A stretch of 64,000 nt of DNA from a bacterium (GTDB lineage: Bacteria; Patescibacteriota; Minisyncoccia; 2-02-FULL-40-12; IGHO2-01-FULL-4-A), in NCBI GenBank assembly GCA_030698885.1, contig JAUYLN010000020.1, positions 7,346 through 71,345 on the forward strand, written 5' to 3'. This document shows, one piece after another, positions 19,442-60,865 of this stretch. The position numbers were made by a program, and so were the translations under genes. Each line of letters starts with the position of its first letter. The first letter of the stretch is position 1. A model generated the notes under the pieces. It did not search any database and was not told the origin of the DNA. It saw only the letters and a program-made list of their open reading frames with translations.

Positions 19442-19475
19442 AACTAAGCCATAGGCAATAAGTTGTACGATTTTC

Positions 19476-19508
19476 TTACAGCTTACAGCTTACAGCTTAC
19501 AGCTTTAG
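19476..19508. repeat. Heptamer tandem repeat (CAGCTTA) x ~4.5 between rplR and rpsE
   Basis: cttacagcttacagcttacagcttacagcttta, seen directly. Confidence 0.7.
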
Positions 19509-20101: not shown

Positions 20102-20105
20102 AATT

Positions 20106-20567
20106 ATGCAGTTACATCAATTAAAACCATCAGGAAGCAATAAAAAGCGCAAACGAGTGGGCCGAGGCGGAAGCCGCGGTACTTATTCTGGCCGTGGCCA
20201 GAAAGGACAGAAATCAAGAGCCAGCACTTCAATAAGGCCTGATTTTAGGGGTGGAAGCGTACCACTTTGGAAAATATTTGGTAAAAAAAGAGGCTCAAGC
20301 AAAAAGGTTGATATAAAACACAGAGCGTTTAGAATAAGGAATAAGAAGCCTATCGTTGTTAAGCTGTCCCAGCTGAATCACTTTTTTAAAGATGGCGATA
20401 CGGTTACATTAAAAAATGTTATAAAGGCCGGACTGGCCGATAAATCCGGGGCCGGTATTAAAATTTTAAGCAACGGCGAGATAACAAAGAAGTTAAATTT
20501 TGTCAGATTGCCTATGTCGGCATCAGCAAAAAATAAAGTTACAGCTGCCGGAGGCACCGTCAAATAG
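20106..20567 (+). CDS. rplO: 50S ribosomal protein L15. There is no L30 gene between S5 and L15.
   Basis: MQLHQLKPSGSNKKRKRVGRGGSRG..., the L15 N-terminus. Only 4 nt separate it from the rpsE stop. Confidence 0.85.
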   Translation: MQLHQLKPSGSNKKRKRVGRGGSRGTYSGRGQKGQKSRASTSIRPDFRGGSVPLWKIFGKKRGSSKKVDIKHRAFRIRNKKPIVVKLSQLNHFFKDGDTVTLKNVIKAGLADKSGAGIKILSNGEITKKLNFVRLPMSASAKNKVTAAGGTVK

Positions 20568-20649
20568 ATTTACCAATTACCAATAAAATCACTAATATAC
20601 AAATAAGAAATGGATTCGTATATTAGTACCAGATTAGTAATTAGTAGAT
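20568..20649 (+). repeat. Intergenic nested-palindrome element, copy L (rplO->secY)
   Basis: ATTTACCAATTACCAATAAAATCACTAATATAC...GTATATTAGTACCAGATTAGTAATTAGTAGAT. Confidence 0.85.
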
Positions 20650-20653
20650 AATC

Positions 20654-24570: not shown

Positions 24571-24622
24571 GCCGTAAAGCCGTAAAGCTCTATGGCCGTA
24601 AAGCTCTATGGTCTCATAGCTT
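24551..24622. repeat. Short tandem-repeat block (GCCGTAAAGC / AAGCTCTATGGC family) upstream of the sugar-transferase gene
   Basis: gtaaagccgtaaagctgtaagccgtaaagccgtaaagctctatggccgtaaagctctatggtctcatagc. Confidence 0.6.
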
Positions 24623-32783: not shown

Positions 32784-32912
32784 ACAGGGCCTTTTTTTGT
32801 TTTACGGCAGATGTTATGGTTATCGGATTATTGGTTCAAATAAGTCAATAATGATTAACGCGTTTGGCCCTCCATGAGCGGAGGAGCTCTACGGCGAAAG
32901 CATATAAGCCAC

Positions 32913-34893: not shown

Positions 34894-35251
34894 CTAGTTT
34901 TACGGCTATATAATTGCCTCAGTTATTTTTTTGCCGATTTCCGAAGGTGGTGAGGTGGGGGGATAGGATAGCCCCCGCCGTTTTTAGCGGGAGCCACTAT
35001 ACAAACGGCTCAACGATAATTATCGTTGAGCCGTTTGTGGTTAACCGAGGGCCGCTCTCGTTAATTTTTACGTATAGTCTACAGCTTACTGTTTATAGCT
35101 GTTATACTATTAATAAAAGGCGGGCCTGCCTACCGAAGTTTTATACGAAGGCGGGGAGAATTAGAAGTAGAACAAAAGAAACTATCGTCAAGACAGCGAT
35201 AATTATTCCGAACCAGCGCACGAATTTTTTATTGCCGATAACCATAGATGA

Positions 35252-35332
35252 TCTACTAATTACTAATTTCATACTAATATACTAATCTATTTCTTATTCG
35301 TATATTAGTGATTTTATTAGTAATTGGTAGAT
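35252..35332 (+). repeat. Intergenic nested-palindrome element, copy M (upstream of the ftsB-like gene)
   Basis: TCTACTAATTACTAATTTCATACTAATATAC...GTATATTAGTGATTTTATTAGTAATTGGTAGAT. Confidence 0.8.
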
Positions 35333-38546: not shown

Positions 38547-38625
38547 GCCCAAAATAGATCATTTGACCCGCTTCCCGCCTTCTGCTATTATGTAGACAGG
38601 CTTAGGGCCTTTATTTTATTCTTAG

Positions 38626-38706
38626 TCTACCAATTACGAATTTTGTACTAATATACTAATAGAATTTAAATTCGTATATTAGTGATTTAATTAGTAATTA
38701 GTAGAT
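38626..38706 (+). repeat. Intergenic nested-palindrome element, copy N (upstream of rpsL)
   Basis: TCTACCAATTACGAATTTTGTACTAATATAC...GTATATTAGTGATTTAATTAGTAATTAGTAGAT. Confidence 0.85.
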
Positions 38707-38709
38707 AAT

Positions 38710-39120
38710 ATGCCGACTTTTAACCAATTAATGAAACACCCAAGAAGGGTAGCAAAAGCGAAGGATACTTCGCCTGCTTTGTCATTTAGCTTCAACACCA
38801 TACACAACAGACCGACATACAGTCCGGCTCCGTTTAAAAGAGGAGTCGTAACTCAGGTTAGAACTGTAACTCCGAAAAAGCCTAACTCCGCCTTGAGAAA
38901 AGTTGCCCGTATAAGGCTGACAAACGGTATGGAAGTAACAGCGTATATTCCGGGCGAAGGCCACAATATTCAGGAACATGCTGTAGTGATGATAAGAGGC
39001 GGAAGAGTAAAGGATTTGCCGGGTGTCAGGTATCACATTGTCCGAGGCAGATTAGATGCTGCCGGAGTTGAGAAGCGAAGGCAACAGCGTTCTAAGTACG
39101 GCGCCAAGCGCCCCAAATAA
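38710..39120 (+). CDS. rpsL: 30S ribosomal protein S12
   Basis: S12 homology (...[11 protein letters not shown]...). Confidence 0.95.
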
Positions 39121-39201
39121 TCTACCAATTACTAATCGGGTACTAATGTACGAATAAAATCAGGATTAGTATATTAGTGATTTAATTAGTAATTAGTAGA
39201 T
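39121..39201 (+). repeat. Intergenic nested-palindrome element, copy O (rpsL->rpsG)
   Basis: TCTACCAATTACTAATCGGGTACTAATGTACG...GATTAGTATATTAGTGATTTAATTAGTAATTAGTAGAT. Confidence 0.85.
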
Positions 39202-39206
39202 AATAT

Positions 39207-39674
39207 ATGCGACGTCCAATCAAAAAAAGAGCAGAAGCAGAGCCGGATGCAAAATATTCATCACCATTGGTGGTGCGTCTTATCAACCAGGTAATGAAAA
39301 AAGGCAAAAAGTCTATTGCTCAAAAAATAGTTTATAGCGCCATGGAAAAACTTGAAAGGCAAAGTAAAAAACCTGCCCTTGAGGCGTTGGTAGAGGCGCT
39401 AGATAATGCCGGTCCCCAGGTTGAGCTAAGGTCGCGAAGAGTCGGCGGAGCCAATTATCAGGTTCCTCATGAGGTCCGAGGAGACAGAAAAGTTACTTTA
39501 GCTTTGCGCTGGATATTGATTGCAGCCAGAAGCCAGAAAGGCAAACCCATGGATGAAAGACTGGCTGAAGAGTTAAATAATGCCATAAACAATACCGGAC
39601 TAGCCATTAAGAAGAAATTAGATACACACAAGATGGCGGATGCTAATAAGGCATTTGCCCATTTCTCTTGGTAA
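39207..39674 (+). CDS. rpsG: 30S ribosomal protein S7
   Basis: S7 homology. Confidence 0.95.
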
Positions 39675-39675
39675 T

Positions 39676-41787
39676 ATGGAACGAGATTATCCGATTGAAA
39701 AAATTAGGAACATAGGAATTATCGCCCACATAGACGCCGGAAAGACTACGGTTTCCGAGCGTGTTTTATTTTACACAGGCCTTTCTTACAAAATAGGAGA
39801 GGTGCATGAGGGCGCGGCCGTAATGGACTGGATGGAACAGGAAAGAGAGCGCGGTATTACCATTACCTCTGCCGCCGTTACTACTTACTGGATACCGACC
39901 TATGCGAATCATAATAAAGAATTTGAACGCAGGATAAATATCATTGATACTCCCGGCCACGTGGATTTTACGGTTGAAGTAGAGCGCTCGCTTCGTGTTC
40001 TGGATGGTGGAGTAGTTGTGTTTGACGGAGTCGCCGGCGTTGAGCCCCAATCCGAGACTGTTTGGCGTCAGGCCGAAAAATATCATGTACCAAGAATGTG
40101 TTTTATAAATAAGCTTGACCGCATGGGAGCTTCCTTTGAGCGTTCTTACCGTTCAATACTTGAAAGACTCACGCCGAATGCCATTCGCATGCAGATACCG
40201 GACGGCGAGGAAGATAAGTTTATGGGAGTAGTTAATCTGCTTGAAATGAAATATTTTAAATTTGAAGGCGCTCACGGAGAAAGTGTTGTTGAGGCGGATA
40301 TTCCATCCGAGGAACTTAAAACAAGAGCCCAGGAGTTAAGGGCCGAGCTTATTGAAAAAATAGTTGAGAATGATGATAAGGCTATGGCTGATTATCTTGA
40401 AGGCAGGGAAGTCCCGGTTGACGAGCTTAAAAAAATACTTCGCAAAGCAGTTCTGGGCAACAAACTAGTACCGGTTTTTGCCGGCTCTGCCTTAAAAAAT
40501 AGAGGGGTTCAATTCATGCTGGATGGCGTGGTTGATTATCTCCCGTCGCCCTTGGATGTGCCTGCTGTAACCGGCACCGATCCGAAAACTGATGAGAAAA
40601 TAACAAGAGAAGCCAAAGACGAAGAGCCATTTGCCGCACTGGCTTTCAAGATTGCCACAGATCCATTCGTCGGTCAGCTGACATTCTTCAGGGTATACTC
40701 AGGCCAGCTGTCGGCGGGTTCTTACGCCTTAAACAGTACATCGCGAAATCAGGAAAGAATCGGCAGAATAGTCAGAATGAAATCTAATGACAGGGAAGAA
40801 ATAAAAGAAGTATTTGCCGGAGGCATTGCTGCCGCGGTGGGCCTTAAAGGCACCAAAACTGGCGATACATTATGTGATCCGGAGCATCCTATAATTCTTG
40901 AAAATATTGTTTTTCCGGAGCCTGTCATATCTCTTCGTATTGAGCCAAAAAGTAAAGCTGACCAGGAAAAAATGGGCATGGCTTTAAGCAAGCTTGTAAT
41001 GGAAGACCCAACTTTTAGGGTTAAGGGCGACATAGAAACAGGAGAAACTATAATCAGCGGAATGGGCGAGCTTCATTTGGATATTTTGGTGGACAGAATG
41101 AAAAGGGAGTTTAAGGTGGAAGCTAATATCGGCAGGCCACAAGTCGCGTATAAAGAAACTATCAAAAGCAATGCCGAAGCCGAAGGTAAATATATTAAAC
41201 AATCCGGCGGACGCGGTCAGTATGGACATGTCAGGATGAGAATTGAACCGCTTGAGCGTGGCAAGGGATTTGAGTTTGTAAATGCTATAAAAGGAGGCGC
41301 GATTCCGCAAGAATTTATCCCGGCTGTTGAAAAGGGTGCTCACGAAGCTGTGGATAAGGGCGTTATCGCGGGATTTCCGCTGGTTGACGTGAAAGCCACG
41401 GTTTATGACGGTTCCTATCACGAAGTTGATTCATCTGAAGTAGCTTTCAAGATTGCAGCTTCAATGGCTCTGCAGGAAGCCGCAAAGCGTGCCAAGCCTA
41501 TTTTGCTTGAGCCTGTTATGAAGGTAGAAGTAATCATGCCTGATGAATTCATGGGCGAAATAACCGGTGATTTAAGTTCCCGCAGAGGCAGGATAGAACA
41601 GATGGGCGACCGCTCGCCGCTTAATCTAAAAGTTATTGATGCTAAAGTTCCGCTTTCCGGCATGTTCGGTTATGCCACAACCTTGCGTTCACTCACTCAG
41701 GGCAGGGGAACATATACGATGGAGTTTGATAATTATGAAGAAGTTCCCGCTAATGTTGCTGCTCAAGTAACAGAAGGAAAGAAATAG
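39676..41787 (+). CDS. fusA: Elongation factor G
   Basis: [25 protein letters not shown]... Start set at the conserved Met 2 nt after the rpsG stop (the track ORF starts at 39640). Confidence 0.95.
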
Positions 41788-42066: not shown

Positions 42067-42165
42067 ATAACTAGTTTATACAAAGGGCATCTTTGTAATT
42101 ACAAAGATGCCCTTTGTTGTGCCTGATACTGGATACTTAATACTTAATACGATATAATAATTTTA

Positions 42166-42882: not shown

Positions 42883-42964
42883 TCTACTAATTACTAATAA
42901 AATCACTAATATACGAATAAGATTAAAATTTAGTATATTCGTATCAGATTAGTAATTGGTAGAT
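42883..42964 (+). repeat. Intergenic nested-palindrome element, copy P (GT2->galT-like)
   Basis: TCTACTAATTACTAATAAAATCACTAATATACG...GTATATTCGTATCAGATTAGTAATTGGTAGAT. Confidence 0.85.
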
Positions 42965-42969
42965 GATTC

Positions 42970-43971: not shown

Positions 43972-44033
43972 TCTACTAATTACTCGTATGTTCCTTATTA
44001 GTATATTGGTGATTTTATTGGTAATTAGTAGAT
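43972..44033 (+). repeat. Intergenic nested-palindrome element, copy Q (galT-like->tpiA), short form
   Basis: TCTACTAATTACTCGTATG...TTAGTATATTGGTGATTTTATTGGTAATTAGTAGAT. Confidence 0.8.
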
Positions 44034-44037
44034 TTAC

Positions 44038-46553: not shown

Positions 46554-46557
46554 ATAA

Positions 46558-46639
46558 TCTACCAATTACGAATTAAATCACTAATATACGAATGAGAAGT
46601 CTTGATTAGTATATTGGTATAAAATTAGTAATTAGTAGG
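46558..46639 (+). repeat. Intergenic nested-palindrome element, copy R (rnhA->DoxX)
   Basis: TCTACCAATTACGAATTAAATCACTAATATACG...GATTAGTATATTGGTATAAAATTAGTAATTAGTAGG. Confidence 0.85.
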
Positions 46640-46648
46640 CATTGCACT

Positions 46649-48588: not shown

Positions 48589-48595
48589 TTATTAG

Positions 48596-48624
48596 AGTAT
48601 TAAGTAGTAAGTATAAAGTATAAG
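48596..48624. repeat. Variant of the pilin-associated repeat (AGTATTAAGTAGTAAGTATAAAGTATAAG) directly upstream of the sortase start
   Basis: It shares AGTATTAAG...GTAGTAAGTAT with the repeats at 54428, 55990, 56487, 58163 and 58664. Confidence 0.55.
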
Positions 48625-48650
48625 AACGTAAAAACTAAATCTATTATAAC

Positions 48651-48679
48651 AAATAAAGAGCGCATTGCGCTCTTTATTT
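48651..48679 (-). terminator. Terminator hairpin aaataaagagcgc-attg-gcgctctttattt after the surface-protein gene (minus strand)
   Basis: Perfect stem with flanking T/A runs. Confidence 0.6.
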
Positions 48680-48691
48680 GTTGAACCTGTT

Positions 48692-48718
48692 CCTTAATAC
48701 TTAACCCTTACTACTTAT
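48692..48718. repeat. Inverted variant of the pilin-associated repeat (CCTTAATACTTAACCCTTACTACTTAT) overlapping the surface-protein stop codon
   Basis: Reverse complement: ATAAGTAGTAAGGGTTAAGTATTAAGG. Confidence 0.55.
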
Positions 48719-50348: not shown

Positions 50349-52799
50349 ATGAATAAGTACATTGCGGTTTGTCTGCTTGCGGGCGTGTTGGTTTTGGGTG
50401 GTATAAGTTTGGCTTATGGCGAGTCTTCACCAACCTTAACTACAGATAAAGATGATTATTTGATAGGAGAGACTGCCACTATCTCCGGCCTGTCATTTAA
50501 CCCATCAGAGAATTTTAATATTAAAGTATATGGGGGAAGCGATGCTGATGGAACTTACACCGAAACAAATGATGTCGTTGCAAGCGATGAAAATGGCAAA
50601 TTTATTTATTCATATACTCTTGATTTAGTTTACAGGCCCTTATATGTGGTTGCGGTCAGTGATTTAAATGGTGTTGAATTGGCAAGAACCACATTCACTG
50701 ATGCACCACCCGCAGTAAGCCTTGAACAATGTAGAAATGGAGCGGTGGGGACACCTAATAATTGTGAAGATCTAGGCGGTGGAAGCGGCTGGGTTTCCGG
50801 TAATGTTGGAGCCTCGCAGGGGCATTACTTAGAAGGACACTCCATTCCATATAGGGCAGTTTTAACAAACCTTCCGGTTAATACGCCAATAACTCTAACT
50901 CTGGGATATGATATAAAACATAGCGGTGCTCATGCTATAGACTATTTGACTCATTTTGATCGTCTTGATCCACATACCCAGTTCAGTCATTCTGCCGAAA
51001 GTGTAAATCCGACTGATGGTGTTTCGGGATTTTCTGCAACCACAACGACCTTTACTGTTCTGGCGCCTGATACTATAAATTCTCCGGTTTTTGGGCAACC
51101 AGCTACAAGCTTCAATGCATTACTTGCTGGCGAGAGGGTTATGACATTATTTGGAGGAACTATTTCTGGCATCTCGTATGATACTGATGGTGATTTAACT
51201 GCTGCACAATCTGAAACTAGGATTACCGTTACATTTAGTGTTGATGATTCTACTGCAGTTCTCGCATGGGGTGGCCATATAGCTACCCAAGAAGATTGGG
51301 GCGTTGGTCAATCTGCAGGAGGAATTAGCGGTTCTCCTTACCATATGCGTTTAATTGACTGGAATTTAAATAATCTCGGCAACACAGATCGCTCTCTTTC
51401 TGCGGCAGTAATTCTTGTTCCCCAACAGGCCACACTTACTCTTTTGAAGGATGTAGTTAATGACAATGGCGGAACAGCTTTGGATACTGCCTGGACTCTT
51501 TCCGCAAACGGTCCTACTCCGGTTTCCGGAGTTGAAGGCGATGTAGCAGTTACAGATGCTTTAGTTGATGCCGGAGAATATACTCTTTCAGAATCAAGCG
51601 GCCCTTCAGGTTATACTGCTTCTTCATATAGTTGTGTTGTGAATGGCGAAAATCCCGTTGTCGGTAATTCATTAACTCTTGCTCCTGAAGATGTCGCAGT
51701 TTGTACTATCACCAATGATGACGATGCCCCTTCCCTTACTTTGGTAAAGGAAGTTGTTAATGATAACGGTGGAACCGCAGTGGCAGGCGACTGGACACTT
51801 ACTGCGACCGGCTACGATTCAGTTTCTCCTGATGCAGGCACTTATGACCTTTCAGAATCAGGCCCTGACAATTACACTCAGACCTCTTTGACCTGCGATA
51901 ATGCCGAAGGACAGGTTACTTCAGTAACTCTCGGTCTTGGTGAGGATGTCACCTGCACATTTGTAAATGATGATCAGCCTGCTAAGTTGACTATAATAAA
52001 AGATTCAGATCCGAATGATACCCAGGATTTCAATTTCTCGGGTACATTAGGCGCATTCGTATTGGATAATGATGAAGGAGTGCAGGATGTAGAGGATAGT
52101 GCCACTCCAGACAGAAAGACATTTGATGACTTATCAGCAAACCAAGTTTATACCGTAACCGAAGGACCGCAGCCAAGCACATATTGGACATTTGTCGGGG
52201 TTAGCTGTGTGGATACAAATACTCAAGAAGTATATCCGGCAACCGTTGATGGCCAGAGCATATCAGTTGAGCTTGTTTTAGATGGAGACGTTACCTGCAC
52301 ATTCGTAAATCATAAAGACAGCCCATCCAGAACTCTTGGTTTCTGGAAGACACATACTGAATATACGACCAGTATATTTGAGAATCAGCTGGGGAGCAGC
52401 ATAACCTTGGGTGATGGAGGAGAGCACCAGGATGTGATTGCTTCACCGTCCGCATTATTCGGTGCGTGGTATTCAAACGTTTCACAGAAATCAATTGGTA
52501 AAGGCAAGAATGCACGAAGATCCACGGTTGACCAGGCCAGAATGCAGTTGGCATGGCAGTGGTTGGCGGCAAAACTAAACTGTGCGGCATTCGGATGCCC
52601 AAGTGATGTGCAGACGTTGCTTAGTGATGCCAGCACGGTTTACGCAGTAGGTGATGTAGGCGCAATGCTTAACTATGCCGGTCAGCTTGATATCTTTAAT
52701 AATGCCAGCGACTCAATCGTTATAGATGGTGATGTTGGCAAGGCAACTCCGAAATTATCACAGACTCTCGCAGATCTTCTGTTCTGGGACACACCATAA
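50349..52799 (+). CDS. Large secreted protein with three tandem beta-sandwich-like repeats (LTL[V/L]K[E/D]VVNDNGGTA...)
   Basis: Signal peptide; repeated ~100-aa units seen in the translation; no obvious C-terminal sorting signal. Confidence 0.6.
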   Translation: MNKYIAVCLLAGVLVLGGISLAYGESSPTLTTDKDDYLIGETATISGLSFNPSENFNIKVYGGSDADGTYTETNDVVASDENGKFIYSYTLDLVYRPLYVVAVSDLNGVELARTTFTDAPPAVSLEQCRNGAVGTPNNCEDLGGGSGWVSGNVGASQGHYLEGHSIPYRAVLTNLPVNTPITLTLGYDIKHSGAHAIDYLTHFDRLDPHTQFSHSAESVNPTDGVSGFSATTTTFTVLAPDTINSPVFGQPATSFNALLAGERVMTLFGGTISGISYDTDGDLTAAQSETRITVTFSVDDSTAVLAWGGHIATQEDWGVGQSAGGISGSPYHMRLIDWNLNNLGNTDRSLSAAVILVPQQATLTLLKDVVNDNGGTALDTAWTLSANGPTPVSGVEGDVAVTDALVDAGEYTLSESSGPSGYTASSYSCVVNGENPVVGNSLTLAPEDVAVCTITNDDDAPSLTLVKEVVNDNGGTAVAGDWTLTATGYDSVSPDAGTYDLSESGPDNYTQTSLTCDNAEGQVTSVTLGLGEDVTCTFVNDDQPAKLTIIKDSDPNDTQDFNFSGTLGAFVLDNDEGVQDVEDSATPDRKTFDDLSANQVYTVTEGPQPSTYWTFVGVSCVDTNTQEVYPATVDGQSISVELVLDGDVTCTFVNHKDSPSRTLGFWKTHTEYTTSIFENQLGSSITLGDGGEHQDVIASPSALFGAWYSNVSQKSIGKGKNARRSTVDQARMQLAWQWLAAKLNCAAFGCPSDVQTLLSDASTVYAVGDVGAMLNYAGQLDIFNNASDSIVIDGDVGKATPKLSQTLADLLFWDTP

Positions 52800-52815
52800 T
52801 CTTGTTACTCTAGAT

Positions 52816-52851
52816 CACCAAAAACCGCCCCGAGACGGGCGGTTTTTGGTG
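52816..52851 (+). terminator. Rho-independent terminator (caccaaaaaccgcccg-agac-gggcggtttttggtg)
   Basis: 16-bp perfect stem plus T-run. Confidence 0.7.
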
Positions 52852-53034
52852 ATGAAACTCTTCATGAAGATTCCATAAACTTGAGATTAAATAAAGCTTA
52901 GCATATAATAACATAATTAATTTTGGCCCGCAAAACAGTGATAGGACAGCATACTTGCCAAAAATAACAAATTGTGATATTATATATACAGTAAAAAGGC
53001 TTAATGCCTTTTTGCGTTAAAAGCGCTATTATCA

Positions 53035-53197
53035 GAACTTGTCCAAAAACCCTCTTTCGTCGCGAAATTGCAGAATTTTGAGCGAGACACTCCGGCGGAA
53101 AACGAAGCATATCCTTTGATATGGTGAGTTTGAGCCGTTGGGTGTCGCAGCCGAAATTCTGCAATTGCAGCAGAATACGGGGTTTTTGGACAAGTTC
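53035..53197. promoter_or_regulatory. Nested long-range inverted repeats in the pilB leader: GAACTTGTCCAAAAACCC ... GGGTTTTTGGACAAGTTC (outer) and CGAAATTGCAGAATT ... AATTCTGCAATTGCAG (inner)
   Basis: Two perfect or near-perfect inverted-repeat pairs ~130 bp apart, ending 10 nt before the pilB ATG. Confidence 0.5.
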
Positions 53198-53207
53198 AAG
53201 GCCTTTT

Positions 53208-54425
53208 ATGACCAAAACTAAGTCAGAAAAAGAAATAAAAAAGGGGGCAGAAATATCAGTTATCACACTGGTGGACTCTTTGATTGAAGATGCCCACCAG
53301 GTAAATGCTTCCGATATTCATATTGATGCCGGCGAAAAATCGGCCAGGGTCAGGTTCAGGGTTGATGGCGTTTTACAGGATATGTTTGAATTGCCATTGG
53401 GCCTGATGCCTGAAATTATTTCCAGAATAAAAATATTGACCAACCTAAGAACTGATGAGCACAAGGTTCCGCAGGACGGTCGTTTCAGGCTAGTCATTGA
53501 AAAAATCGGACCGGTTGATGTCAGGGTGGCCATTACCCCGACTTATCACGGTGAAAGCGCCGTTTTGCGTTTATTGTCTTCCGACCAGTCCGGCCAATAT
53601 AGTCTTGAGTCTTTGGGTTTTGAAGAGCATGACAGAGAAAAAATATTGAAAGCCGTTCAGAATCCTTACGGAATGATTTTGGTTACCGGACCGACCGGCT
53701 CAGGTAAAACAACCACTCTTTATACGATATTAAAAATTTTAAATACAAATGATGTTTCAATCATTACGATTGAAGACCCGATTGAATATGCCATTGATAA
53801 TATAAAGCAGGTTCCGGTCAGTGCCAGAACCGGTCTAACCTTTGCCAGCGGTCTGCGCTCCATGTTGAGGCAGGACCCGGACATTATCATGGTGGGTGAG
53901 ATTAGGGATGAGGACACTGCCGGCCTTGCGGTCAATACCGCTTTGACCGGTCACCTTTTACTTTCAACATTGCATACAAATGATGCGGCTACGACTTTGC
54001 CCAGATTGTTAGACATGAAGATAGAGCCATATTTGGCTTCGTCCACTGTTAACGTTGCCATCGGCCAGAGATTGGTCAGAAGGATCTGCGAAGGCTGTAA
54101 GGTTCAGAAAAATATTACCGAAACTGAGTACGAGAGCCTTGTAGAGGTTTTGGGTAAAAACATAGTCGGATCAAGTAAAAAGTTTTATAAAGGTTCAGGT
54201 TGCGATAAATGCAATCTGACCGGTTATCGCGGAAGATTAGTAATAGACGAAGTTATGGTCATTGATGACGAGATAAGGGAGGCTATCTTAAAAAAAGGTT
54301 CTTCAAGCGATATAAAAAATATTGCAATAAAGAATGGCATGACCACGATGATAGAAGACGGAATTAGAAAAGCCGCGAAAGGAATGACGACGATACAGGA
54401 AGTGCTGAGAGTGATACATGAATAA
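53208..54425 (+). CDS. Type IV pilus/type II secretion assembly ATPase (PilB/GspE family, short N-terminus)
   Basis: Walker A GPTGSGKTTTLY, Asp/His boxes and a tetracysteine motif CEGC...CDKC. Start set at MTKTKSEK (the track ORF starts at 53121 inside the inverted repeats). Confidence 0.8.
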   Translation: MTKTKSEKEIKKGAEISVITLVDSLIEDAHQVNASDIHIDAGEKSARVRFRVDGVLQDMFELPLGLMPEIISRIKILTNLRTDEHKVPQDGRFRLVIEKIGPVDVRVAITPTYHGESAVLRLLSSDQSGQYSLESLGFEEHDREKILKAVQNPYGMILVTGPTGSGKTTTLYTILKILNTNDVSIITIEDPIEYAIDNIKQVPVSARTGLTFASGLRSMLRQDPDIIMVGEIRDEDTAGLAVNTALTGHLLLSTLHTNDAATTLPRLLDMKIEPYLASSTVNVAIGQRLVRRICEGCKVQKNITETEYESLVEVLGKNIVGSSKKFYKGSGCDKCNLTGYRGRLVIDEVMVIDDEIREAILKKGSSSDIKNIAIKNGMTTMIEDGIRKAAKGMTTIQEVLRVIHE

Positions 54426-54427
54426 TT

Positions 54428-54460
54428 CTAAGTATTAAGGAATAAGTAGTAAGTATTAAG
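54428..54460 (+). repeat. Pilin-associated repeat (CTAAGTATTAAGGAATAAGTAGTAAGTATTAAGC) directly upstream of the four-helix-bundle gene
   Basis: Same unit as upstream of each pilin gene. The first ~20 nt of the downstream CDS are also conserved. Confidence 0.8.
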
Positions 54461-54461
54461 C

Positions 54462-54842
54462 ATGGATACAAAAACAAAAATTGAAAGCTTTACCGATTTA
54501 AAGGCATGGAAAGAAGGGCATAGGCTTGTCCTGGACGTTTATAAGATTAGCAGGGAGTTTCCCAGAGAAGAGATGTTCGGCTTGGCCAATCAATTAAGGC
54601 GTGCAGTCGTATCAATCACATCAAACTTGGCCGAAGGATTTAGTAGAACATCCTATAAGGACAAGATAAAGTTTTATTCTATATCATTAGGGTCTTTAAC
54701 TGAAGTGCAAAACCAGTTATTGATATCCCGAGACATTAATTATTTGAACAAAGAAAAATTTGATATTTTAGCACAACAAACAATTTTGGTAAGTAAGTTG
54801 GTTAATGGTTTAATTAAAAAATTAAAAACCCTTAATACTTAA
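54462..54842 (+). CDS. Four-helix-bundle protein (TIGR02436 / 23S-rRNA-intervening-sequence-protein family)
   Basis: ...FTDLKAWKEGHRLVLDVYKISREFPREEMFGLANQLRRAVVSITSNLAEGFSR...ISLGSLTEVQNQL... matches the family signature. Confidence 0.6.
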   Translation: MDTKTKIESFTDLKAWKEGHRLVLDVYKISREFPREEMFGLANQLRRAVVSITSNLAEGFSRTSYKDKIKFYSISLGSLTEVQNQLLISRDINYLNKEKFDILAQQTILVSKLVNGLIKKLKTLNT

Positions 54843-54860
54843 TACTTGCTACTTAATACT
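54831..54860 (-). repeat. Inverted copy of the pilin-associated repeat (CTTAATACTTAATACTTGCTACTTAATACT) overlapping the 4HB stop codon
   Basis: Reverse complement AGTATTAAGTAGCAAGTATTAAGTATTAAG. Together with 54428-54460 it brackets the 4HB gene with inverted repeats. Confidence 0.7.
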
Positions 54861-54867
54861 ATTCGTC

Positions 54868-55989
54868 ATGAGCTTCATTAAATCAAACAACCCAACATTT
54901 AATAAGGAAATTTCATTTAGCTTGCCTAAGTGGATGCCTTTCGGCAGATTGTCGGTCAAAGACCAGGCGGTTTTTGCCAAGAGATTATCGTTTTTGATAA
55001 AGGCCGGCGTGCCGATATTGGACGGCATCAGGATGTTAAACAAGCAGACTAAGTCCGGTTCCAAAAAGAGGATATTGGAGCAGGTTTTAAGCGACGTTTC
55101 ACAGGGCCAGCTTTTGTCCGCCAGCTTTGCCAAATCCCAGAAAGTATTCGGCGAATTCGGCATTAGCATGATAAAAGTCGGTGAAGAGGGCGGTATTTTG
55201 GATGAAAACCTGAGCTATCTTGCCGAAGAGTTGAGAAAGAGCCATCGCTTGAGGAAAAAGATAAAAGGCGCGTTGGCCTATCCGGCTTTTGTTACTTTTG
55301 CTACTATCGGCATAACCGGTTTTATAACCGCTTTTATATTCCCTAAAATTTTGCCTATTTTTGCTAATTTTGGAGCCGAACTTCCGGTAACAACCAAGGC
55401 CCTCATAATTATAAGCACATTTCTTCTTCATTATGGCCTAGCGCTTTTAGCTGGCCTTTTTGTCTTATCTATTTTTCTATACGGAGTGTATCTTAAGGCG
55501 GGGCCATTCAGGATGACTGTGGACAGAGGCGTTCTCTCTTTGCCGATATTCGGCAAAATGATTAAAGATTACCAGATGGCAAGTTTTTGCCGAACTTTTG
55601 GGCTGCTTCTAAAGAGCCAGCTGGATGTTGTTAAGGCAACTCAGATTACAGCTCACACGCTTTCAAATCATGTTTATCAAAGAGAAATTAAGGCCCTCTC
55701 GGTTAACATTACAAAGGGTAAAAATATCGCTGAGTACATAAGCCAGAATCCTTATTTGTTTCCGGAAATGGTTTTACAGACCTTATCGGTCGGCGAATCA
55801 ACCGGTCATTTAAGCGACAGCTTGCTTTATCTTTCCGATTATTACGAGAACGAAGTTGAAGAAACAACCAGGAATTTATCAAGCACTCTTGAGCCGGCCC
55901 TGATGGTAGTCATGGGTGTCGTGGTTGGATTCGTGGCTTTAGCTGTTATCACTCCGATTTATCAGATAACTCAAAATATTCATCCGTAA
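54868..55989 (+). CDS. Type IV pilus/type II secretion platform protein (PilC/GspF family)
   Basis: Three TM segments with two GspF-like cytoplasmic domains. Confidence 0.8.
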   Translation: MSFIKSNNPTFNKEISFSLPKWMPFGRLSVKDQAVFAKRLSFLIKAGVPILDGIRMLNKQTKSGSKKRILEQVLSDVSQGQLLSASFAKSQKVFGEFGISMIKVGEEGGILDENLSYLAEELRKSHRLRKKIKGALAYPAFVTFATIGITGFITAFIFPKILPIFANFGAELPVTTKALIIISTFLLHYGLALLAGLFVLSIFLYGVYLKAGPFRMTVDRGVLSLPIFGKMIKDYQMASFCRTFGLLLKSQLDVVKATQITAHTLSNHVYQREIKALSVNITKGKNIAEYISQNPYLFPEMVLQTLSVGESTGHLSDSLLYLSDYYENEVEETTRNLSSTLEPALMVVMGVVVGFVALAVITPIYQITQNIHP

Positions 55990-56023
55990 CTAAGTATTAA
56001 GGGATAAATAGTAAGTATTAAGC
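55990..56023 (+). repeat. Pilin-associated repeat (CTAAGTATTAAGGGATAAATAGTAAGTATTAAGC)
   Basis: It starts right after the pilC stop and ends at the pilin ATG. Confidence 0.8.
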
Positions 56024-56485
56024 ATGAATACAAAAACAAAAAACAATCAGTGGGGGTTCACTGCCGTAGAGGTTTTAATGGTTATTGGAATTTTTTCGCT
56101 TCTGGCCGGCCTGGGTCTTTTTATCAGTATGGATTTCTACAGAAGTTATTCTTTCAGGTCTGACAGGGATATGACCATCAGTATTCTGGAAAGAGCCAGA
56201 GCTCAGTCTTTGGCCAATATTAATGAATCGGCCCACGGTGTTCGCTTTGATTCCGGTTCATCCAAGTTAATATTATTTCAGGGTAATTCATATGATGACA
56301 GAGACACCTCGCTTGACCAGGAAATATCTTTAAATTCAGGCATAGCAGTAACCGGCATAAATGAGGTTGTGTTTGAACAACTGACGGGTAATGCAGTATA
56401 TTCTGGAGCCGGAAATATGATTTTAAGCTACGGAGCCCAAACCGCGACGATATCATTTAATGGAGAGGGGAGGATAAATTACTAG
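56024..56485 (+). CDS. Type IV prepilin/pseudopilin (class III signal MNTKTKNNQWG|FTAVE)
   Basis: Leader ending in Gly, mature N-terminus F-x-x-x-E5 followed by a hydrophobic helix. Confidence 0.7.
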   Translation: MNTKTKNNQWGFTAVEVLMVIGIFSLLAGLGLFISMDFYRSYSFRSDRDMTISILERARAQSLANINESAHGVRFDSGSSKLILFQGNSYDDRDTSLDQEISLNSGIAVTGINEVVFEQLTGNAVYSGAGNMILSYGAQTATISFNGEGRINY

Positions 56486-56486
56486 C

Positions 56487-56518
56487 AAGTATTAAGGGAT
56501 AAGTAGTAAGTATTAAGC
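56487..56518 (+). repeat. Pilin-associated repeat (CAAGTATTAAGGGATAAGTAGTAAGTATTAAGC)
   Basis: Located between the stop of pilin 1 and the ATG of the next gene. Confidence 0.8.
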
Positions 56519-58171
56519 ATGAATACAAAAATAAAAAACAATCAGAGGGGGTTCATCCCGCACCTTTCTGGCAATTGCCTTCGGCATAACAGGCCTCTTT
56601 GCGGCGTTTGCCAAAAAGGTGCGGGATTCAGCACTATTGAGATAGTGCTGGCTTTTGCGATAATCATTGTCGTGCTGTCGGCTATAATTTTAGTTGTGTT
56701 CGGCAATCAGACTGTTGCCGTGGATAATGAGATAAATAACGAGGCATTGTACAAAGCGAAAGAAATTGTTGAGACGGCCCGTGCTGATGCCAAGGAGGAT
56801 TTTTATGGTTTAGCCGGGAGTACCTCTCTTGATGATATTTACACAAAAGTTCTAGGTATATCTGATATTAATCTTTGCAAAAAAAGCATTACCGGAACGG
56901 TTTCATGGCAGACTGAACCTGACAGGCCTCTTGAAATATCTATCAACAGCGAAGTCTCAAGTATTTTTGACGCCCTTGCCCTGGGTGGCGACTGCGGTTC
57001 TGATACCCCCCCGATAAGCGAGTGGTGGTTTCCGAGGACATTTAAGGATTATGACCTAAAGACAATAGAGCCTCCGGCAGAACAGTCGGGGAATGCTGGT
57101 GTTCCGGCAACAAGTATTGATGTCGTTAAGCAGGGGGGCAGTAAATACGCAGTCTTAAGTACCGCACATAATTCAGAAAATGATATCTGGATAATTAATG
57201 TTGACGATAGTTTAAATGCATTTATAGTGAGTTCGCTTGAAACAGAAAGCGTTGGTCTTAATACTGCGGATGTGGCAGGAGGCCTTGCTTATGCCTTAAG
57301 CGTAGGTTCACCCACGACACAACCTTCCGAATTACAAATTATAGATATAAGTACAGTTAGCGCGCCCGCACTCTTGGCTACCAAGTCTTTGGATATTTTC
57401 GGTGCAGATGCCGAGAATTCACCGAATGCAAATACTATTTATTACTTTGACGAAAAAATATATGTCGGTACGCATAAAACAGGAGGCAAAGAATTTCAGA
57501 TTTTTAGTGGTGTTGCACCATATGAGAAGGTTGCAGAGCTAGAGATAAACCACAACATTAATGACATAGTTGTCAGGGGTGATTATGCCTATTTGGCTAC
57601 ATCGGATGATGGCTATGCAATAAATGGTGGGGCAGGTGAGCTTATGGTTGTTAACATAAATCCGTTAAGCCCAGAAGAATATATGGTTCACCCTGATGTA
57701 ACTGGCATGTGGTACGATGCCACCAAGGGTTTTGACGCTATAAGTCTTTATTTGCTAGGCAATAAGATTTATTTAGGCAGGCAGGGCGGTAATTATGTTA
57801 AAACAGAAGCGTTCAATTTTATGATATTAGACATAACTGACCCGCATGCAATCACGGAGCTTGGTTCAAAATTTATTCCTACTAACGAATCACCAAATAA
57901 GGCCGCGGGGATTAAGGATTTTCAAATAGTGAGCGATTTTGCATTTATTGCAACAGATGTAGATAACTTGGACTTTCAGGTTTATAGAGTAAGCGATCCA
58001 ACTAATATTCTAAATTGCAGTGAGCTGACTCCTCCTCCTGCGTCTAACTGTGGTAAATATGATTTTCCGGCAAAAATGGTAGATCTCGAATTTAGCGATA
58101 ACCTCATTTATGCAGCCATTGAAAGTAATGCAACTTTCAGGATAATTTTTGATGATATAACCAAGTATTAA
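56519..58171 (+). CDS. Large (550-aa) pilin-like protein, a putative tip or minor pilin. It has an unusually long leader containing two G|F junctions and an in-frame 13-bp-stem hairpin.
   Basis: MNTKIKNNQRG-FIPHL...QKGAG|FSTIEIVLAF: the second junction has E5 and a hydrophobic helix. The C-terminal ~450 aa form a globular domain. Confidence 0.6.
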   Translation: MNTKIKNNQRGFIPHLSGNCLRHNRPLCGVCQKGAGFSTIEIVLAFAIIIVVLSAIILVVFGNQTVAVDNEINNEALYKAKEIVETARADAKEDFYGLAGSTSLDDIYTKVLGISDINLCKKSITGTVSWQTEPDRPLEISINSEVSSIFDALALGGDCGSDTPPISEWWFPRTFKDYDLKTIEPPAEQSGNAGVPATSIDVVKQGGSKYAVLSTAHNSENDIWIINVDDSLNAFIVSSLETESVGLNTADVAGGLAYALSVGSPTTQPSELQIIDISTVSAPALLATKSLDIFGADAENSPNANTIYYFDEKIYVGTHKTGGKEFQIFSGVAPYEKVAELEINHNINDIVVRGDYAYLATSDDGYAINGGAGELMVVNINPLSPEEYMVHPDVTGMWYDATKGFDAISLYLLGNKIYLGRQGGNYVKTEAFNFMILDITDPHAITELGSKFIPTNESPNKAAGIKDFQIVSDFAFIATDVDNLDFQVYRVSDPTNILNCSELTPPPASNCGKYDFPAKMVDLEFSDNLIYAAIESNATFRIIFDDITKY

Positions 58172-58194
58172 GGGATAAGTAGTAAGTATTAAGC
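58163..58194 (+). repeat. Pilin-associated repeat (CAAGTATTAAGGGATAAGTAGTAAGTATTAAGC)
   Basis: Immediately upstream of the pilin ATG at 58195. Confidence 0.8.
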
Positions 58195-58665
58195 ATGAAT
58201 ACAAAAAGAAAAAACAATCAGAGGGGATTCACTTTGGTGGAGGTGCTCATCTACACGGTTTTAATTATGTTTATACTTGGCGGAATGCTTTTGGCCGTCT
58301 ATAACATTGTTGAAGGAAGTACGGCCCTTGGCCAGGATGTGATTATTCAAGAAGAGGCAAATTTTCTGCTTCGTAAAATTGAGTGGGCATTGAGCGGGGC
58401 CAGCGATATCAATACTCCGAATTCAGGAAATAGCGGGAATGTGCTTTCGGTTGATAAAGATTTAAACACCATACAGTTTAATCTTGATTCAGGTAATTTA
58501 AGGATTGATAAGGGGAGCGGTCCGATAATACTAAACAGCGAGTATGTTACGGTTTCCAGTTTGAGCTTTGAGCATATTCCCGCAAGCGGAACCGGTCCAG
58601 CAGCGGTTCGTGCCGAATTTTATGTTGACGATAAATACTTCAATTTAACGAAGTACCTTCGTTAA
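58195..58665 (+). CDS. Type IV prepilin/pseudopilin (MNTKRKNNQRG|FTLVE)
   Basis: Class III signal with E5 and a hydrophobic N-terminal helix. Confidence 0.7.
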   Translation: MNTKRKNNQRGFTLVEVLIYTVLIMFILGGMLLAVYNIVEGSTALGQDVIIQEEANFLLRKIEWALSGASDINTPNSGNSGNVLSVDKDLNTIQFNLDSGNLRIDKGSGPIILNSEYVTVSSLSFEHIPASGTGPAAVRAEFYVDDKYFNLTKYLR

Positions 58666-58695
58666 GTATTAAGGGATAAGTAGCAAGTATTAAGC
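58664..58695 (+). repeat. Pilin-associated repeat (TAAGTATTAAGGGATAAGTAGCAAGTATTAAGC)
   Basis: Overlaps the stop of pilin 3 and ends at the ATG of pilin 4. Confidence 0.8.
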
Positions 58696-59100
58696 ATGAA
58701 TACAAAAATAAAAAACAATCAGGAGGGATTTATCGCGCTGGTGTCAGCAATCGTAATATCTCTTGTATTGATGGCGATAGTTTTCTCCCTAAGTTTTAGG
58801 GGATTTTTCGGGCGCTTCAATCTTCTGGACAGCGAATTTAAAGAAAGAAGCATCGCTGTCGCTGAAGCTTGCGGTGACAATGCATTGCTTCGCTTGGCCC
58901 AAGATATAAACTATGCAGGCAGTGAGAGCTTTGATATAGGAGATGATACTTGTAAAGTTTTGCCGATAAATAATATATTAAGTCCCAGGGTTATCTATGC
59001 TACGGCTAATGTATATTCAGCTGTTACAAATCTGAAGATAACGGTTGATGAAGCCACTCTCTCCGTCAGCTCTTGGCAAGAAATTCCGAAACGGCCCTAG
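58696..59100 (+). CDS. Minor pilin-like protein lacking Glu5 (MNTKIKNNQEG|FIALVS)
   Basis: Same conserved leader, but the mature +5 residue is Val rather than Glu; it could be a GspK/PilX-like minor pilin. Confidence 0.55.
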   Translation: MNTKIKNNQEGFIALVSAIVISLVLMAIVFSLSFRGFFGRFNLLDSEFKERSIAVAEACGDNALLRLAQDINYAGSESFDIGDDTCKVLPINNILSPRVIYATANVYSAVTNLKITVDEATLSVSSWQEIPKRP

Positions 59101-59191
59101 TTGACAATTAGGCATATTTTCTGTTATTATCACAACAGGTTTAAAGACCTCGTTTTTTTATAATAAAAAGAGAGAAAAGGAGTGAAAAATA

Positions 59192-60865
59192 ATGGTGAAA
59201 ACAATTTTAAGAAGCACCGCTCTTGCGCTTTTGTTCTCTGCTTTGGTTTTTTCGCAAAACTTTCCAAAGCCGGTCGGATATGTAAACGATTTTGCTGACA
59301 TTTTGCCTGCCGAGATTGAGACTCAACTTTCGGCAAAATTAAGCGACTATCAGCAAAAAACCTCCATAGAAATTGCTGTAGTTACCGTTCAGTCCCTGGA
59401 AGGCTATGAAGTTGATGATTATACCAACCGTTTGGCTAATGCATGGGGTGTTGGCGATAGGGCTAAAGATAACGGAATTGTTTTTCTCATAGCGCCCAAT
59501 GACAGAGATGTCAGAATTGAAGTCGGCTATGGCCTTGAGCCTGATTTGACGGATGGCGCATCCGGAAATATTCTTGACCAGTTCGTTGTCCCGTATTTTC
59601 GGGATAACAATATGGCCGGTGGAGTTGTGGCCGGAGTAGACGGCATTATTGCTCACCTTGGAGATACGCCTATTCAGGCACGCCTTGAAGAAAGAAAAAT
59701 AGCCGAAGAAAAAAATCGGTTGGCCCGTGAAGAAGCCAGTAGGAATTTCAAAAATATCATGACGATATTTGGTATTTTTCTGGCTATAGCCACACCCATT
59801 TTTGGCCTTTTGTGGTTAGGGATTAGGTATGCCAGGCGGGTAAAGTATTTAAAAAAGGTTGACCTGGAAAATAAAGCGAAACTAAAAGTGTTCAGCTCAC
59901 GGCTTAGTAGCGGGAATTCAAATTTTAGAGAAGCAATGGAATTATTAAAGGAGCTTAAGTCAGTCAGTCCGGAGACAGTTTGGTCCAATCTTAATAAAAG
60001 AGTAGAAAGCTTTGACGATGATTATGTCGTAGCCGATGAGGATCTTAACAGAATGGGGCTCGGTATAGTTGTCATAGCGGCTAGAGGGTGGAAGGCTTCT
60101 GAATTAGTGTCGGCCAGACTAGAAGAAATCGAGCCGAAAGTAGATAATATTTATTCCTTAAAGTCCGACATTGAGACAAAAATAAAAGAAGTTACAAGAG
60201 CAAAAAAGAAAAGTATGGAAATTCTAAAAACTTTGCCGGCTGCGTATATGGTAGCCAGCGAAAACTCTTTACATGATGATGTAACTACGGAAACCAAGAA
60301 TAGGCTAGAGGAGGTATCCTTAAAGCTTAAAGAAGCTTCGAGGGTGGCCACAGGTGTGGGTAATGAAAATAAGGTGGTTAATATAGAGGAGAGAAATCCG
60401 GATTGGATAAGTATTCTGGCGATTCTTGTCGGGATTGCGCTGTCCCTGAAGAGTATTAATAGTCAAATAACTACCGATAAAGAAAATGCCAATAAGGCCA
60501 GGACTGAAGGCCCGAAGCTTCTAAAAGAATTGCCCGAGCTTATCGCTTCTGTGGCGGAAAAAGTTTCCGGTTCGGATGTAGGTCAGGAAGCCAAAGATTT
60601 ACTGGGTAATGCCAGGAAGCAGTTTAAAAAAGCGGAAGAATCATTAAATCTGGGCTGGCTCGTTGTGTTTCCTTTTTTGGCCTCCGCTTCTTCCTTGCTG
60701 TCACAGGCAGAAGAAAAAGCTAAAAAAGATAACAAAAAAGCATATGACAGGCGCAATCCGAAGCTTTCCAGTGGCCCTACTTACCGACCTCCTAGCGGTG
60801 GAAGTGGATTTGGTGGTTTTAGCGGGGGTAGTTTTGGAGGTGCAGGGGCCAGTCGGAAGTGGTAG
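59192..60865 (+). CDS. TPM-domain (TLP18.3/Psb32/MOLO-1 phosphatase-like) membrane protein with a long coiled C-terminal region and a Gly-rich tail
   Basis: Signal peptide, then ...GYVNDFADILPAEIETQLSAKL...VVTVQSLEG...IEVGYGLE..., the TPM domain, followed by a TM segment. Confidence 0.65.
   Translation: MVKTILRSTALALLFSALVFSQNFPKPVGYVNDFADILPAEIETQLSAKLSDYQQKTSIEIAVVTVQSLEGYEVDDYTNRLANAWGVGDRAKDNGIVFLIAPNDRDVRIEVGYGLEPDLTDGASGNILDQFVVPYFRDNNMAGGVVAGVDGIIAHLGDTPIQARLEERKIAEEKNRLAREEASRNFKNIMTIFGIFLAIATPIFGLLWLGIRYARRVKYLKKVDLENKAKLKVFSSRLSSGNSNFREAMELLKELKSVSPETVWSNLNKRVESFDDDYVVADEDLNRMGLGIVVIAARGWKASELVSARLEEIEPKVDNIYSLKSDIETKIKEVTRAKKKSMEILKTLPAAYMVASENSLHDDVTTETKNRLEEVSLKLKEASRVATGVGNENKVVNIEERNPDWISILAILVGIALSLKSINSQITTDKENANKARTEGPKLLKELPELIASVAEKVSGSDVGQEAKDLLGNARKQFKKAEESLNLGWLVVFPFLASASSLLSQAEEKAKKDNKKAYDRRNPKLSSGPTYRPPSGGSGFGGFSGGSFGGAGASRKW

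Follow-up and report, generated by a model that had tools for sequence, protein, structure and literature searches.

In the intervening sequences found in the 23S rRNA genes of Leptospira, Coxiella and Xanthomonas, an S23p open reading frame (ORF) lies within terminal inverted repeats, which pair into a stem of 28 bp at which RNase III cuts (PMC4990558), and genes for four-helix-bundle proteins wedged within operons have been noticed before, for example between cmr3 and cmr2 (PMC3936711). A second phenomenon is that of the TAACTGA repeats of Beggiatoaceae, Cyanobacteria and Bacteroidetes, heptamer direct repeats which abut start codons without a ribosome-binding site, including those of ribosomal protein operons, and which vary from strain to strain; a part in translation has been suggested for them with no mechanism known, and protein binding to the repeats has been proposed as well (MacGregor 2015, PMC4679880). 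Here we analyse a 64,000-nt stretch of a Patescibacteriota genome (assembly GCA_030698885.1, contig JAUYLN010000020.1, positions 7,346 to 71,345 of the forward strand; hereafter the window), in which a pilus operon holds one complete four-helix-bundle element with heptamer arms and, at the starts of its four pilin-like genes, a near-identical repeat unit. We think it likely that this unit is the left arm of the element followed by the start codon of a PF05635 gene and its first six codons, and that its solo copies, below called cassettes, have been fused in frame to the four pilin leaders. The basis for this is one window of a metagenome-assembled genome (MAG), whose nearest relatives are not close.

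The operon runs in the order pilB, four-helix-bundle gene, pilC and four pilin-like genes (Table 1). The four-helix-bundle protein matches PF05635 at 123.3 bits (cutoff 33.8) over profile positions 2–106 of 106, and TIGR02436 at 117.1 bits (cutoff 24). From the published family motif GxxRxxxSxxxNxxE (PMC3936711) it has RxxxSxxxNxxE, in RRAVVSITSNLAE, with the leading G off the stated spacing (GLANQLRR). An earlier, sequence-only reading of the window had reported an inverted copy of the repeat behind this gene at 54831–54860, and the copy was borne out; the last four codons of the gene and its stop lie within the right arm to which the copy belongs. When the RNA of 54415–54875 is folded, the two arms pair over 11+6+9 bp, a stem of about 26 bp (54450–54460/54831–54841, 54443–54448/54843–54848 and 54431–54439/54852–54860, plus 8 outer pairs), in both the minimum free energy and the centroid structures. 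The same flush layout of stop, arm, four-helix gene, inverted arm and start is found elsewhere, in Flavobacterium and other genomes, in locus L136 and in the Yanofskybacteria locus L133, and each of these elements has its own heptamer with complementary arms. Duplex energies are −30 to −35 kcal/mol for arms of the same element (window, L136, L016) compared to −5 to −13 kcal/mol for arms of different heptamer types.

In several respects the element resembles the 23S rRNA intervening sequences: the ORF is of the same family (PF05635), the terminal inverted repeats form stems of about 26–28 bp, and the arms abut the ORF start and overlap the ORF stop. Unlike those, it is located between protein-coding pilus genes and not in helix 25 or 45 of 23S rRNA (an Rfam scan of the window found two tRNAs only and no rRNA), its arms are tandem heptamers, and solo left ends are fused to host genes. 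RNase III excision is known for the intervening sequences and putative for the window element. The Avd protein of diversity-generating retroelements also belongs to the four-helix-bundle superfamily, the window protein matching bAvd and DivGenRetAVD weakly and far below their cutoffs (21.5 versus 40 bits and 22.8 versus 80 bits). Such a retroelement was rejected as an explanation, as no reverse transcriptase and no template/variable repeat pair was seen in the window, part of whose ORFs were scanned.

The repeat unit itself was sought with the 32-mer AAGTATTAAGGGATAAGTAGTAAGTATTAAGC, permitting up to three mismatches, which matches the window at 54430, 55992, 56487, 58163 and 58664, always on the plus strand and with 0–1 mismatch, compared to zero matches in 100 shuffles (0 expected, 5 observed). 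The 10-mer AAGTATTAAG occurs 14 times in the window where 0.28 would be expected. In the alignment of the five copies the common block spans 51 columns, 46 of them invariant, from AAGTATTAAG to ...ACAAAAAnAAAAA; the ATG is the exact 3' end of the unit in all five, and the coding end of the block reads ATG(A/G)ATACAAAAAnAAAAA, the first 19 nt of the four-helix-bundle gene (ATGGATACAAAAACAAAAA) being found in the pilin cassettes also. The four pilin copies stay near-identical for some 18 nt further, AACAATCAGnnGGGnTT(C/T), through the Gly-Phe prepilin cleavage codons, giving a total of about 69 nt. At its 5' edge the module is abrupt in each copy, with unrelated DNA upstream, and the unit begins 0–4 nt past the stop codon of the preceding gene or overlaps that stop; at its 3' edge it grades into the conserved pilin region. 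Tandem Repeats Finder (TRF) resolves the unit as a degenerate heptamer array (54429–54460, period 7, 4.6 copies of TAAGTAT). The Logan contig L127 (run SRR13727534, 991 nt, ending within the right arm) is identical to window positions 53870–54860 and every copy has private substitutions, and an assembly artefact is therefore unlikely.

These results bear directly on the sequence-only reading, which had described a 34-bp repeat, present five times, that ends at the ATG, shares the first codons of the genes behind it, usually starts at or overlaps the upstream stop and precedes every pilin gene. All of this holds for the window, where a six-frame motif scan found no further pilin-like gene and no silent or partial pilin copies, except that the unit is no plain repeat but the heptamer array described above. 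Its description as a portable cassette was also apt. The four pilin-like genes encode non-paralogous, minor-pilin-like proteins, each of which has a 1:1 ortholog in the module-free relatives, and since one sharply edged module precedes four non-paralogous genes with module-free orthologs, it must have been placed there by copying or recombination.

The direction of transfer is suggested by the relatives. Among the relatives with long contigs L121 is the closest (PilC 69% identical); it has a homologous element between pilC and pilin1 instead of between pilB and pilC, and this aligns with the window element along the full length of arms and ORF; its four-helix-bundle protein, of 126 aa, is 67% identical to that of the window. 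The L121 element starts ...GTAGTAAGC-ATGAATACAAGTACAAAAAT and its right arm reads CCCTTAATACTTACTAC...; the left arm ends ...GGTAGTAAGC and is followed directly by ATGAATACAAGTACAAAAATAAAAAGTTTTACAGAT (MNTSTKIKSFTDL). The pilin genes of L121 are 1 nt apart or overlap, without the repeat, and their leaders read MLHTTNYNSGF, MKFYTKYNSGL, MTYHNTKNSGF and MNINKNNSGF (pilin1 to pilin4), the first of which is encoded by the right arm of the element. The cassette is absent from the pilin genes of L124, L128 and L129 as well. At a different locus, L136, an unrelated element between the carbamoyl-phosphate synthase small-subunit gene and the next gene starts ATGGATATTCAAACAAAAATT / ATGGATATTCAAACAAAAATTCAA / ATGGATAnnnAAACAAAAATT / ATGGATATTCAAACAAAAATTCAATCTTTTACC, with its four-helix gene beginning directly after an arm of its own, different type. 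'TKI[KE]SFTDL' recurs in several four-helix-bundle homologs, the TKI[EK]SF codons being part of the family core. Because the L121 and L136 elements carry the shared codons, these are those of the four-helix-bundle gene and not of the pilins. The arm, the ATG and the ACAAAAA stretch would then be native to the four-helix-bundle gene, with the pilins having acquired them, which reverses the earlier suggestion that the cassette lends this gene a pilin-like N-terminus. As for the tail of the leader (AAAAACAAT...GGnTTy), it is comparable with AAATACAATTCAGGT and AAAAATAATTCAGGA of L121 and, judged by this likeness, pilin-native. If, in an L121-like arrangement, the DNA from codon 6 of the element up to the end of the pilin1 leader were deleted, the 5' end of the window pilin1 would result almost exactly, and short A-rich homology on both sides may have guided the recombination.

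The opposite course, in which the module is native to the pilins, was kept uniform by gene conversion and was picked up by the four-helix-bundle gene as a pilin-type 5' end, appears to us quite improbable. Leaders are indeed alike within each relative (NSGF in L121, Q[RK]G[FY] in L124), making concerted evolution plausible, and pilin3 of L121 natively has NTKN, but the 32 nt upstream are complementary to the arm that lies behind the four-helix-bundle gene, and in L121 it is this gene, not the pilins, that is preceded by arm-ATG-AATACAA. The family-core codons, and the ATGGATAnnnAAACAAAAATT with which the unrelated element at the carbamoyl-phosphate synthase junction begins, likewise argue against it.

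Scans for the cassette junctions found no match in JGI metagenomes or IMG/VR, and a relaxed cassette pattern returned the L121-type contig only. The pilin leaders of other relatives are also built of heptamers (CTAAATA... in L128, ATGCTAC... in L129, AAAATTG... in L124), and the junction between pilB and pilC differs from relative to relative, having a different, empty hairpin in L123, a 124-nt hairpin in L124, an ATCATTT array in L128 and almost no spacer in L121 and L129. Junction elements differ in every relative at the same junction.

Some features of the sequence bear on what the cassettes mean for the pilin genes. In L121 the start of pilin3 overlaps the end of pilin2 (ATGACTTATCACAATACTAA), and the equivalent ATG of the window has a stop codon after it (ATGATATAA). 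By reading of the sequence, pilin1 and pilin3 have no other in-frame start before the Gly-Phe site. Given the loss of the ancestral pilin3 start and the lack of alternative starts, the cassette ATG is the only route to a leader-bearing prepilin. Type IV pilins have their leader removed after Gly-1, and since the leader is cleaved off, a chimeric N-terminus costs the mature protein nothing. The same tolerance is shown by the leader of pilin2, where a GC-rich palindrome inserted in frame directly after the cassette adds 25 residues and is followed downstream by a second GF/STIE(IV) cleavage site; this palindrome has no other copy in the window and is absent from orthologs. A comparable hairpin insertion is seen in the pilin1 leader of L123.

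We propose that tight or overlapping ancestral junctions were replaced by solo left ends in each of the four pilin genes, with each cassette supplying the start codon, the N-terminal half of the leader and an unstructured, A/U-rich upstream region lacking a Shine-Dalgarno sequence. The predicted folds of the solo cassettes, at −2.3 to −4.4 kcal/mol, are no more stable than those of shuffled sequences. Such a cassette may act as a Shine-Dalgarno-independent translation-initiation region, either by direct binding or by re-initiation 23–34 nt after the upstream stop, and the stem of the complete element in the operon transcript would, by likeness to the 23S intervening sequences, be a probable RNase III site. 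Spread could have occurred by gene conversion after a single pilC–pilin1 fusion, or by repeated insertion followed by deletion.

Several points weigh against this proposal. The same 5' edge is found at four junctions that share no upstream homology: gene conversion would need such homology, now absent, and repeated insertion and deletion presupposes that similar deletions occurred four times. The native leader of L121 pilin3, ...AATACTAAAAAC (HNTKN), resembles the cassette sequence AATACAAAAAC, and part of the shared coding stretch could be pilin-native. The element subfamily is found in two lineages only, and closer four-helix-bundle homologs (74–76% identity) carry other N-termini. With respect to RNA structure, folding all 461 nt of the element gives a structure not significantly more stable than shuffles (z = −1.5), only the arm pairing being specific, and across 36 junctions no consistent sense-over-antisense fold stability was found in a G-U-based test for selection at the RNA level.

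The idea of a Shine-Dalgarno-independent start can be set against all gene starts of the window, 26 of 53 of which lie directly behind a repeat arm. Scoring for a Shine-Dalgarno core (GGAG, GAGG or AGGA at −20 to −4), we find none in the 26 arm-preceded starts compared to 10 in the 27 others, where it is typically AAGGAG (one-sided Fisher test, ~4e-4). Of the 7 starts behind AAGTATT-family arms 0 have such a core, and a further 19 unrelated genes, some of them encoding ribosomal proteins, stand behind analogous arms, again without a Shine-Dalgarno core. For the sequence-only reading, a repeat standing before many unrelated genes would have indicated a generic context; in the window the exact AAGTATT family is restricted to the pilus, the sortase and one glycosyltransferase locus, while it is the analogous arms that are widespread. 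The likeness to the TAACTGA repeats is close, both consisting of tandem heptamers within a few nt of the start codon, in a single orientation, without a Shine-Dalgarno sequence, inside operons that include ribosomal protein operons, and variable between close relatives. They differ in that the window heptamer is TAAGTAT / AAGTATT, that the array is an arm of a gene-bearing inverted-repeat element, and that what was copied extends over the start codon into coding sequence.

The further copies reported by the sequence-only reading around the sortase gene are present and form one complete hairpin on the minus strand. This hairpin encloses a terminator-like GC stem, and the relatives have the GC stem only, without arms. 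On a wider scale, a scan of genome contigs with AAGTATTAAG-N9-13-AAGTATTAAG, a generic pattern that matches any (AAGTATT)n array, gave at least 120 stretches, the matches listed coming from Flavobacterium, other Bacteroidota, Ignavibacteriae, Patescibacteria, a Planctomycetia MAG and Vibrio. Arrays form short-loop hairpins in L023, L031 and L120, and among the matches listed a four-helix-bundle ORF lies within 300 nt of the array in 9 of 120 loci, a rough enrichment of ~17-fold over the rest of the loci.

Against this background we regard it as very improbable that AAGTATTAAG-N11-AAGTATTAAG, with its 21-bp period, is a promoter or operator co-regulating the pilus and the sortase-dependent surface genes. 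The arrangement of two identical 10-mers two helical turns apart, and the presence of the same word family at the sortase junction and upstream of the glycosyltransferase gene, would suit such a role. However, 0 of the 32 sigma-70-like sites found in 52700–59400 (16–18 nt spacing) fall within a cassette, good ones being located at 52881–52909 and 52955–52983, upstream of pilB, and at 59101–59130, after pilin4. The units also occupy junctions within the operon, directly between the stop of one gene and the start of the next, the copy at the sortase gene is a hairpin and not a direct repeat, the same heptamer arrays recur across phyla in unrelated contexts, and equivalent arms of other sequence precede ribosomal protein genes. 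The shared promoter or regulator-binding module put forward by the sequence-only reading is thus unsupported. A leaderless-mRNA promoter of the form TATTAA-GC-ATG was considered and rejected, having a poor −35, no final T in the −10 and the wrong spacing; the scan placed no site there. Between the promoter-like sites and the pilB start at 53208 there is a long inverted repeat (53035–53090 / 53142–53197; 56-nt arms, 75% complementary), which may be a regulatory leader structure of pilB.

A role of the solo left arms as sites at the RNA level, pairing with the right arm at 54829–54863 in alternative long-range stems that affect processing, or bound by the four-helix-bundle protein or another single-strand-binding protein such that translation of the pilins would be tied to the element, strikes us as unlikely. 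Five near-identical left arms are complementary to the one right arm, and copy 5 (TAGCAAG) fits the CTTGCTA of the right arm better than does the element's own arm. Members of the protein family are pentamers (PMC4990558, citing Lin 2006), the related Avd is associated with nucleic acid, the window match to bAvd being weak, and there is the proposal of protein binding to heptamer repeats (PMC4679880). Yet at distances of 1.1–3.8 kb pairing in cis is unlikely under coupled transcription and translation, and the relatives manage without such sites.

The possibility that the repeats are a selected substrate for programmed recombination, for pilin deletion, shuffling or antigenic variation, is in our view highly improbable. 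The five direct repeats, of 51–69 nt and ~95% identity, all lie within 4.3 kb, their uniformity itself implies past recombination or copying, and low-level deletion between them is physically possible. Nevertheless, the order of pilin1 to pilin4 is kept in L121, L124, L128 and L129, the window has no silent or partial pilin copies, and the repeats flank whole, different genes with orthologs of their own, such that recombination would delete genes and not vary one. No variant contigs were found in the thin public data, from which one short contig (L127), identical to the window, was retrieved, and look-ups of the exact PilC, pilin2 and pilin3 sequences returned no record. Neisseria pilE/pilS antigenic variation likewise involves repeated sequences at pilin genes, but the window lacks silent donors, its repeats are located 5' of four different genes and do not flank variable segments, and the affected peptide is a cleaved leader that is not surface exposed. 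The cassette exchange, or antigenic-variation-like mechanism, raised by the sequence-only reading is unsupported.

Short repeats that colonise junctions and vary between close relatives are also known as repetitive extragenic palindromes (REP/REPIN-RAYT) and hairpins of the type of miniature inverted-repeat transposable elements (MITE; Correia, RPE), and their in-frame insertion has its counterpart in the 75-nt palindrome of pilin2. Unlike these, the solo cassette is not palindromic and carries the start codon and codons of a specific gene. The Y1 transposase domain PF01797 had no match among the 20 window ORFs scanned against Pfam. Y1 transposase genes (PF01797) with flanking GC-rich palindromes, which they are candidates for mobilising, were seen in L129 (6933–7574), directly after the pilus operon, and in L132–L135 of other Yanofskybacteria (for example L133 6564–7271), near a four-helix-bundle gene.

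Table 1. Positions of the four-helix-bundle element, the solo cassettes and associated features in the window
Feature	Position	Strand	Remarks
pilB-type assembly ATPase	53208..54425	+	PF00437 at 3e-124
Upstream stop of copy 1	54423-54425		pilB TAA
Left inverted-repeat arm	54428..54461	+	4.6 TAAGTAT heptamers; ends exactly at four-helix-bundle ATG
Four-helix-bundle gene	54462..54842	+	126 aa; PF05635 / TIGR02436
Right inverted-repeat arm	54829..54863	+	CTTAATA x4.3; TRF array 54831-54860; ends 5 nt before pilC ATG
pilC-type platform protein	54868..55989	+	PF00482 at 3.7e-53
Upstream stop of copy 2	55987-55989		pilC TAA
Solo cassette 1	55992..56059	+	left arm, ATG, chimeric 12-codon leader MNTKTKNNQWGF; pilin-like gene 1, 56024-56485
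Upstream stop of copy 3	56483-56485		pilin1 TAG
Solo cassette 2	56487..56554	+	left arm, ATG, leader MNTKIKNNQRGF; pilin-like gene 2, 56519-58171
GC-rich palindrome, 75 nt	56556..56630	+	in frame right after cassette 2; -42.2 kcal/mol; TTCA duplicated at both ends
Upstream stop of copy 4	58169-58171		pilin2 TAA, within first heptamer
Solo cassette 3	58163..58230	+	left arm, ATG, leader MNTKRKNNQRGF; pilin-like gene 3, 58195-58665
Upstream stop of copy 5	58663-58665		pilin3 TAA
Solo cassette 4	58664..58731	+	left arm, ATG, leader MNTKIKNNQEGF; pilin-like gene 4, 58696-59100
'Empty' AAGTATT-family hairpin	48589..48714	-	-43.0 kcal/mol; between surface-protein stop and sortase GTG start
Isolated right-arm-type heptamers CTTAATACTTAATAC	42131..42150	+	~15-20 nt upstream of glycosyltransferase gene at 42166

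For the genes of the operon, sequence and relatives indicate ATG 53208 as the likely start of pilB, the mechanical ORF start at 53121 being probably wrong. The beginning of PilB (MTKTK) resembles the cassette in its amino acids only, its DNA being different, and this similarity was therefore discounted. The window PilC is 69% identical to a CG10 Candidatus Yanofskybacteria protein, and the nearest homolog of pilin2 is 64% identical. An N-methylation motif is found in pilin-like genes 1 and 3, and weak ComGD/E/F-type matches in genes 1–3, those of gene 1 being to ComGD and N_methyl. A tblastn search of the window found no second four-helix-bundle gene. Two database proteins, P0200 and P0202 (221 aa), have a complete four-helix-bundle domain together with PF18895 and may be read-through fusions of the element with a downstream gene.

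Other junctions of the window are occupied by hairpins of different sequence. The most numerous family has about 20 copies of 80–90 nt, with a left arm TAATCTACCAATTAC / TAATCTACCAATTACGAATTAAATCACTAATATAC, a loop and GTATATTAGTGATTTAATTCGTAATTAGTAGATAAyATG, at 10267–20653, 35244–35332, 38618–39206, 42883–42969, 43972–44037 and 46554–46648. These hairpins span same-strand junctions, beginning at the stop codon and leaving 2–8 nt in front of the ATG; most junctions of the ribosomal protein operon are among them, and none of the genes downstream of them has a Shine-Dalgarno sequence. Members of a second family, with GCCGTAAAG / GCTCTATGG words (15712–15784, 16234–16311, 24547–24632), reach the start of the L14 gene (probably TTG 16308) and that of the gene at 24621. 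In addition, two conserved, non-coding, GC-rich and structured direct-repeat pairs (12468–12545/41809–41886, 73% identity; 34832–34891/41921–41980, 93% identity) are located downstream of the L2 gene (11605–12444), a GTPase gene (32874–34706, tentatively lepA) and the elongation factor G gene (39640–41787).

The protein family, the architecture of the intervening sequences and the start-proximal heptamer repeats are already known. What appears to be new, in the literature searched, is that the arm, start codon and first codons of an element would have been copied in front of four host genes and now be required for their expression; the suggested link between four-helix-bundle elements and heptamer arms that replace the Shine-Dalgarno sequence also seems new as far as searched. 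A much broader idea, which at present must be called doubtful, is that four-helix-bundle elements are general colonisers of operon junctions, whose arms, as hairpins or solo, serve as Shine-Dalgarno-independent start modules, possibly read by the pentameric protein, and are the source of the start-proximal heptamers in Cyanobacteria, Bacteroidetes, Beggiatoaceae and Patescibacteria. In that case the one gene-bearing element and four solo arms would make the pilus operon a small regulon tied to the protein.

To our knowledge, the function of the four-helix-bundle intervening-sequence element has been unknown since the early 1990s. The pilus operon would provide a concrete case of the end of a selfish element being reused by its host, with four genes depending on a copied start codon, leader segment and upstream region, and insertions of such elements seem to be readily tolerated in signal or leader peptides that are cleaved off. 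For annotation, it warns against inferring a functional partnership with the neighbouring genes from such pilin N-termini, or from four-helix-bundle genes that lie within operons, as they do in cas loci (PMC3936711). It would also join two phenomena hitherto unexplained, the bracketing of four-helix-bundle genes by inverted repeats and the heptamer arrays that take the place of a ribosome-binding site next to start codons. In the window about half of the gene starts, including those of ribosomal protein genes, lie behind such arms, and if the arms are functional initiation or processing modules, this would bear on how translation starts in lineages poor in Shine-Dalgarno sequences.

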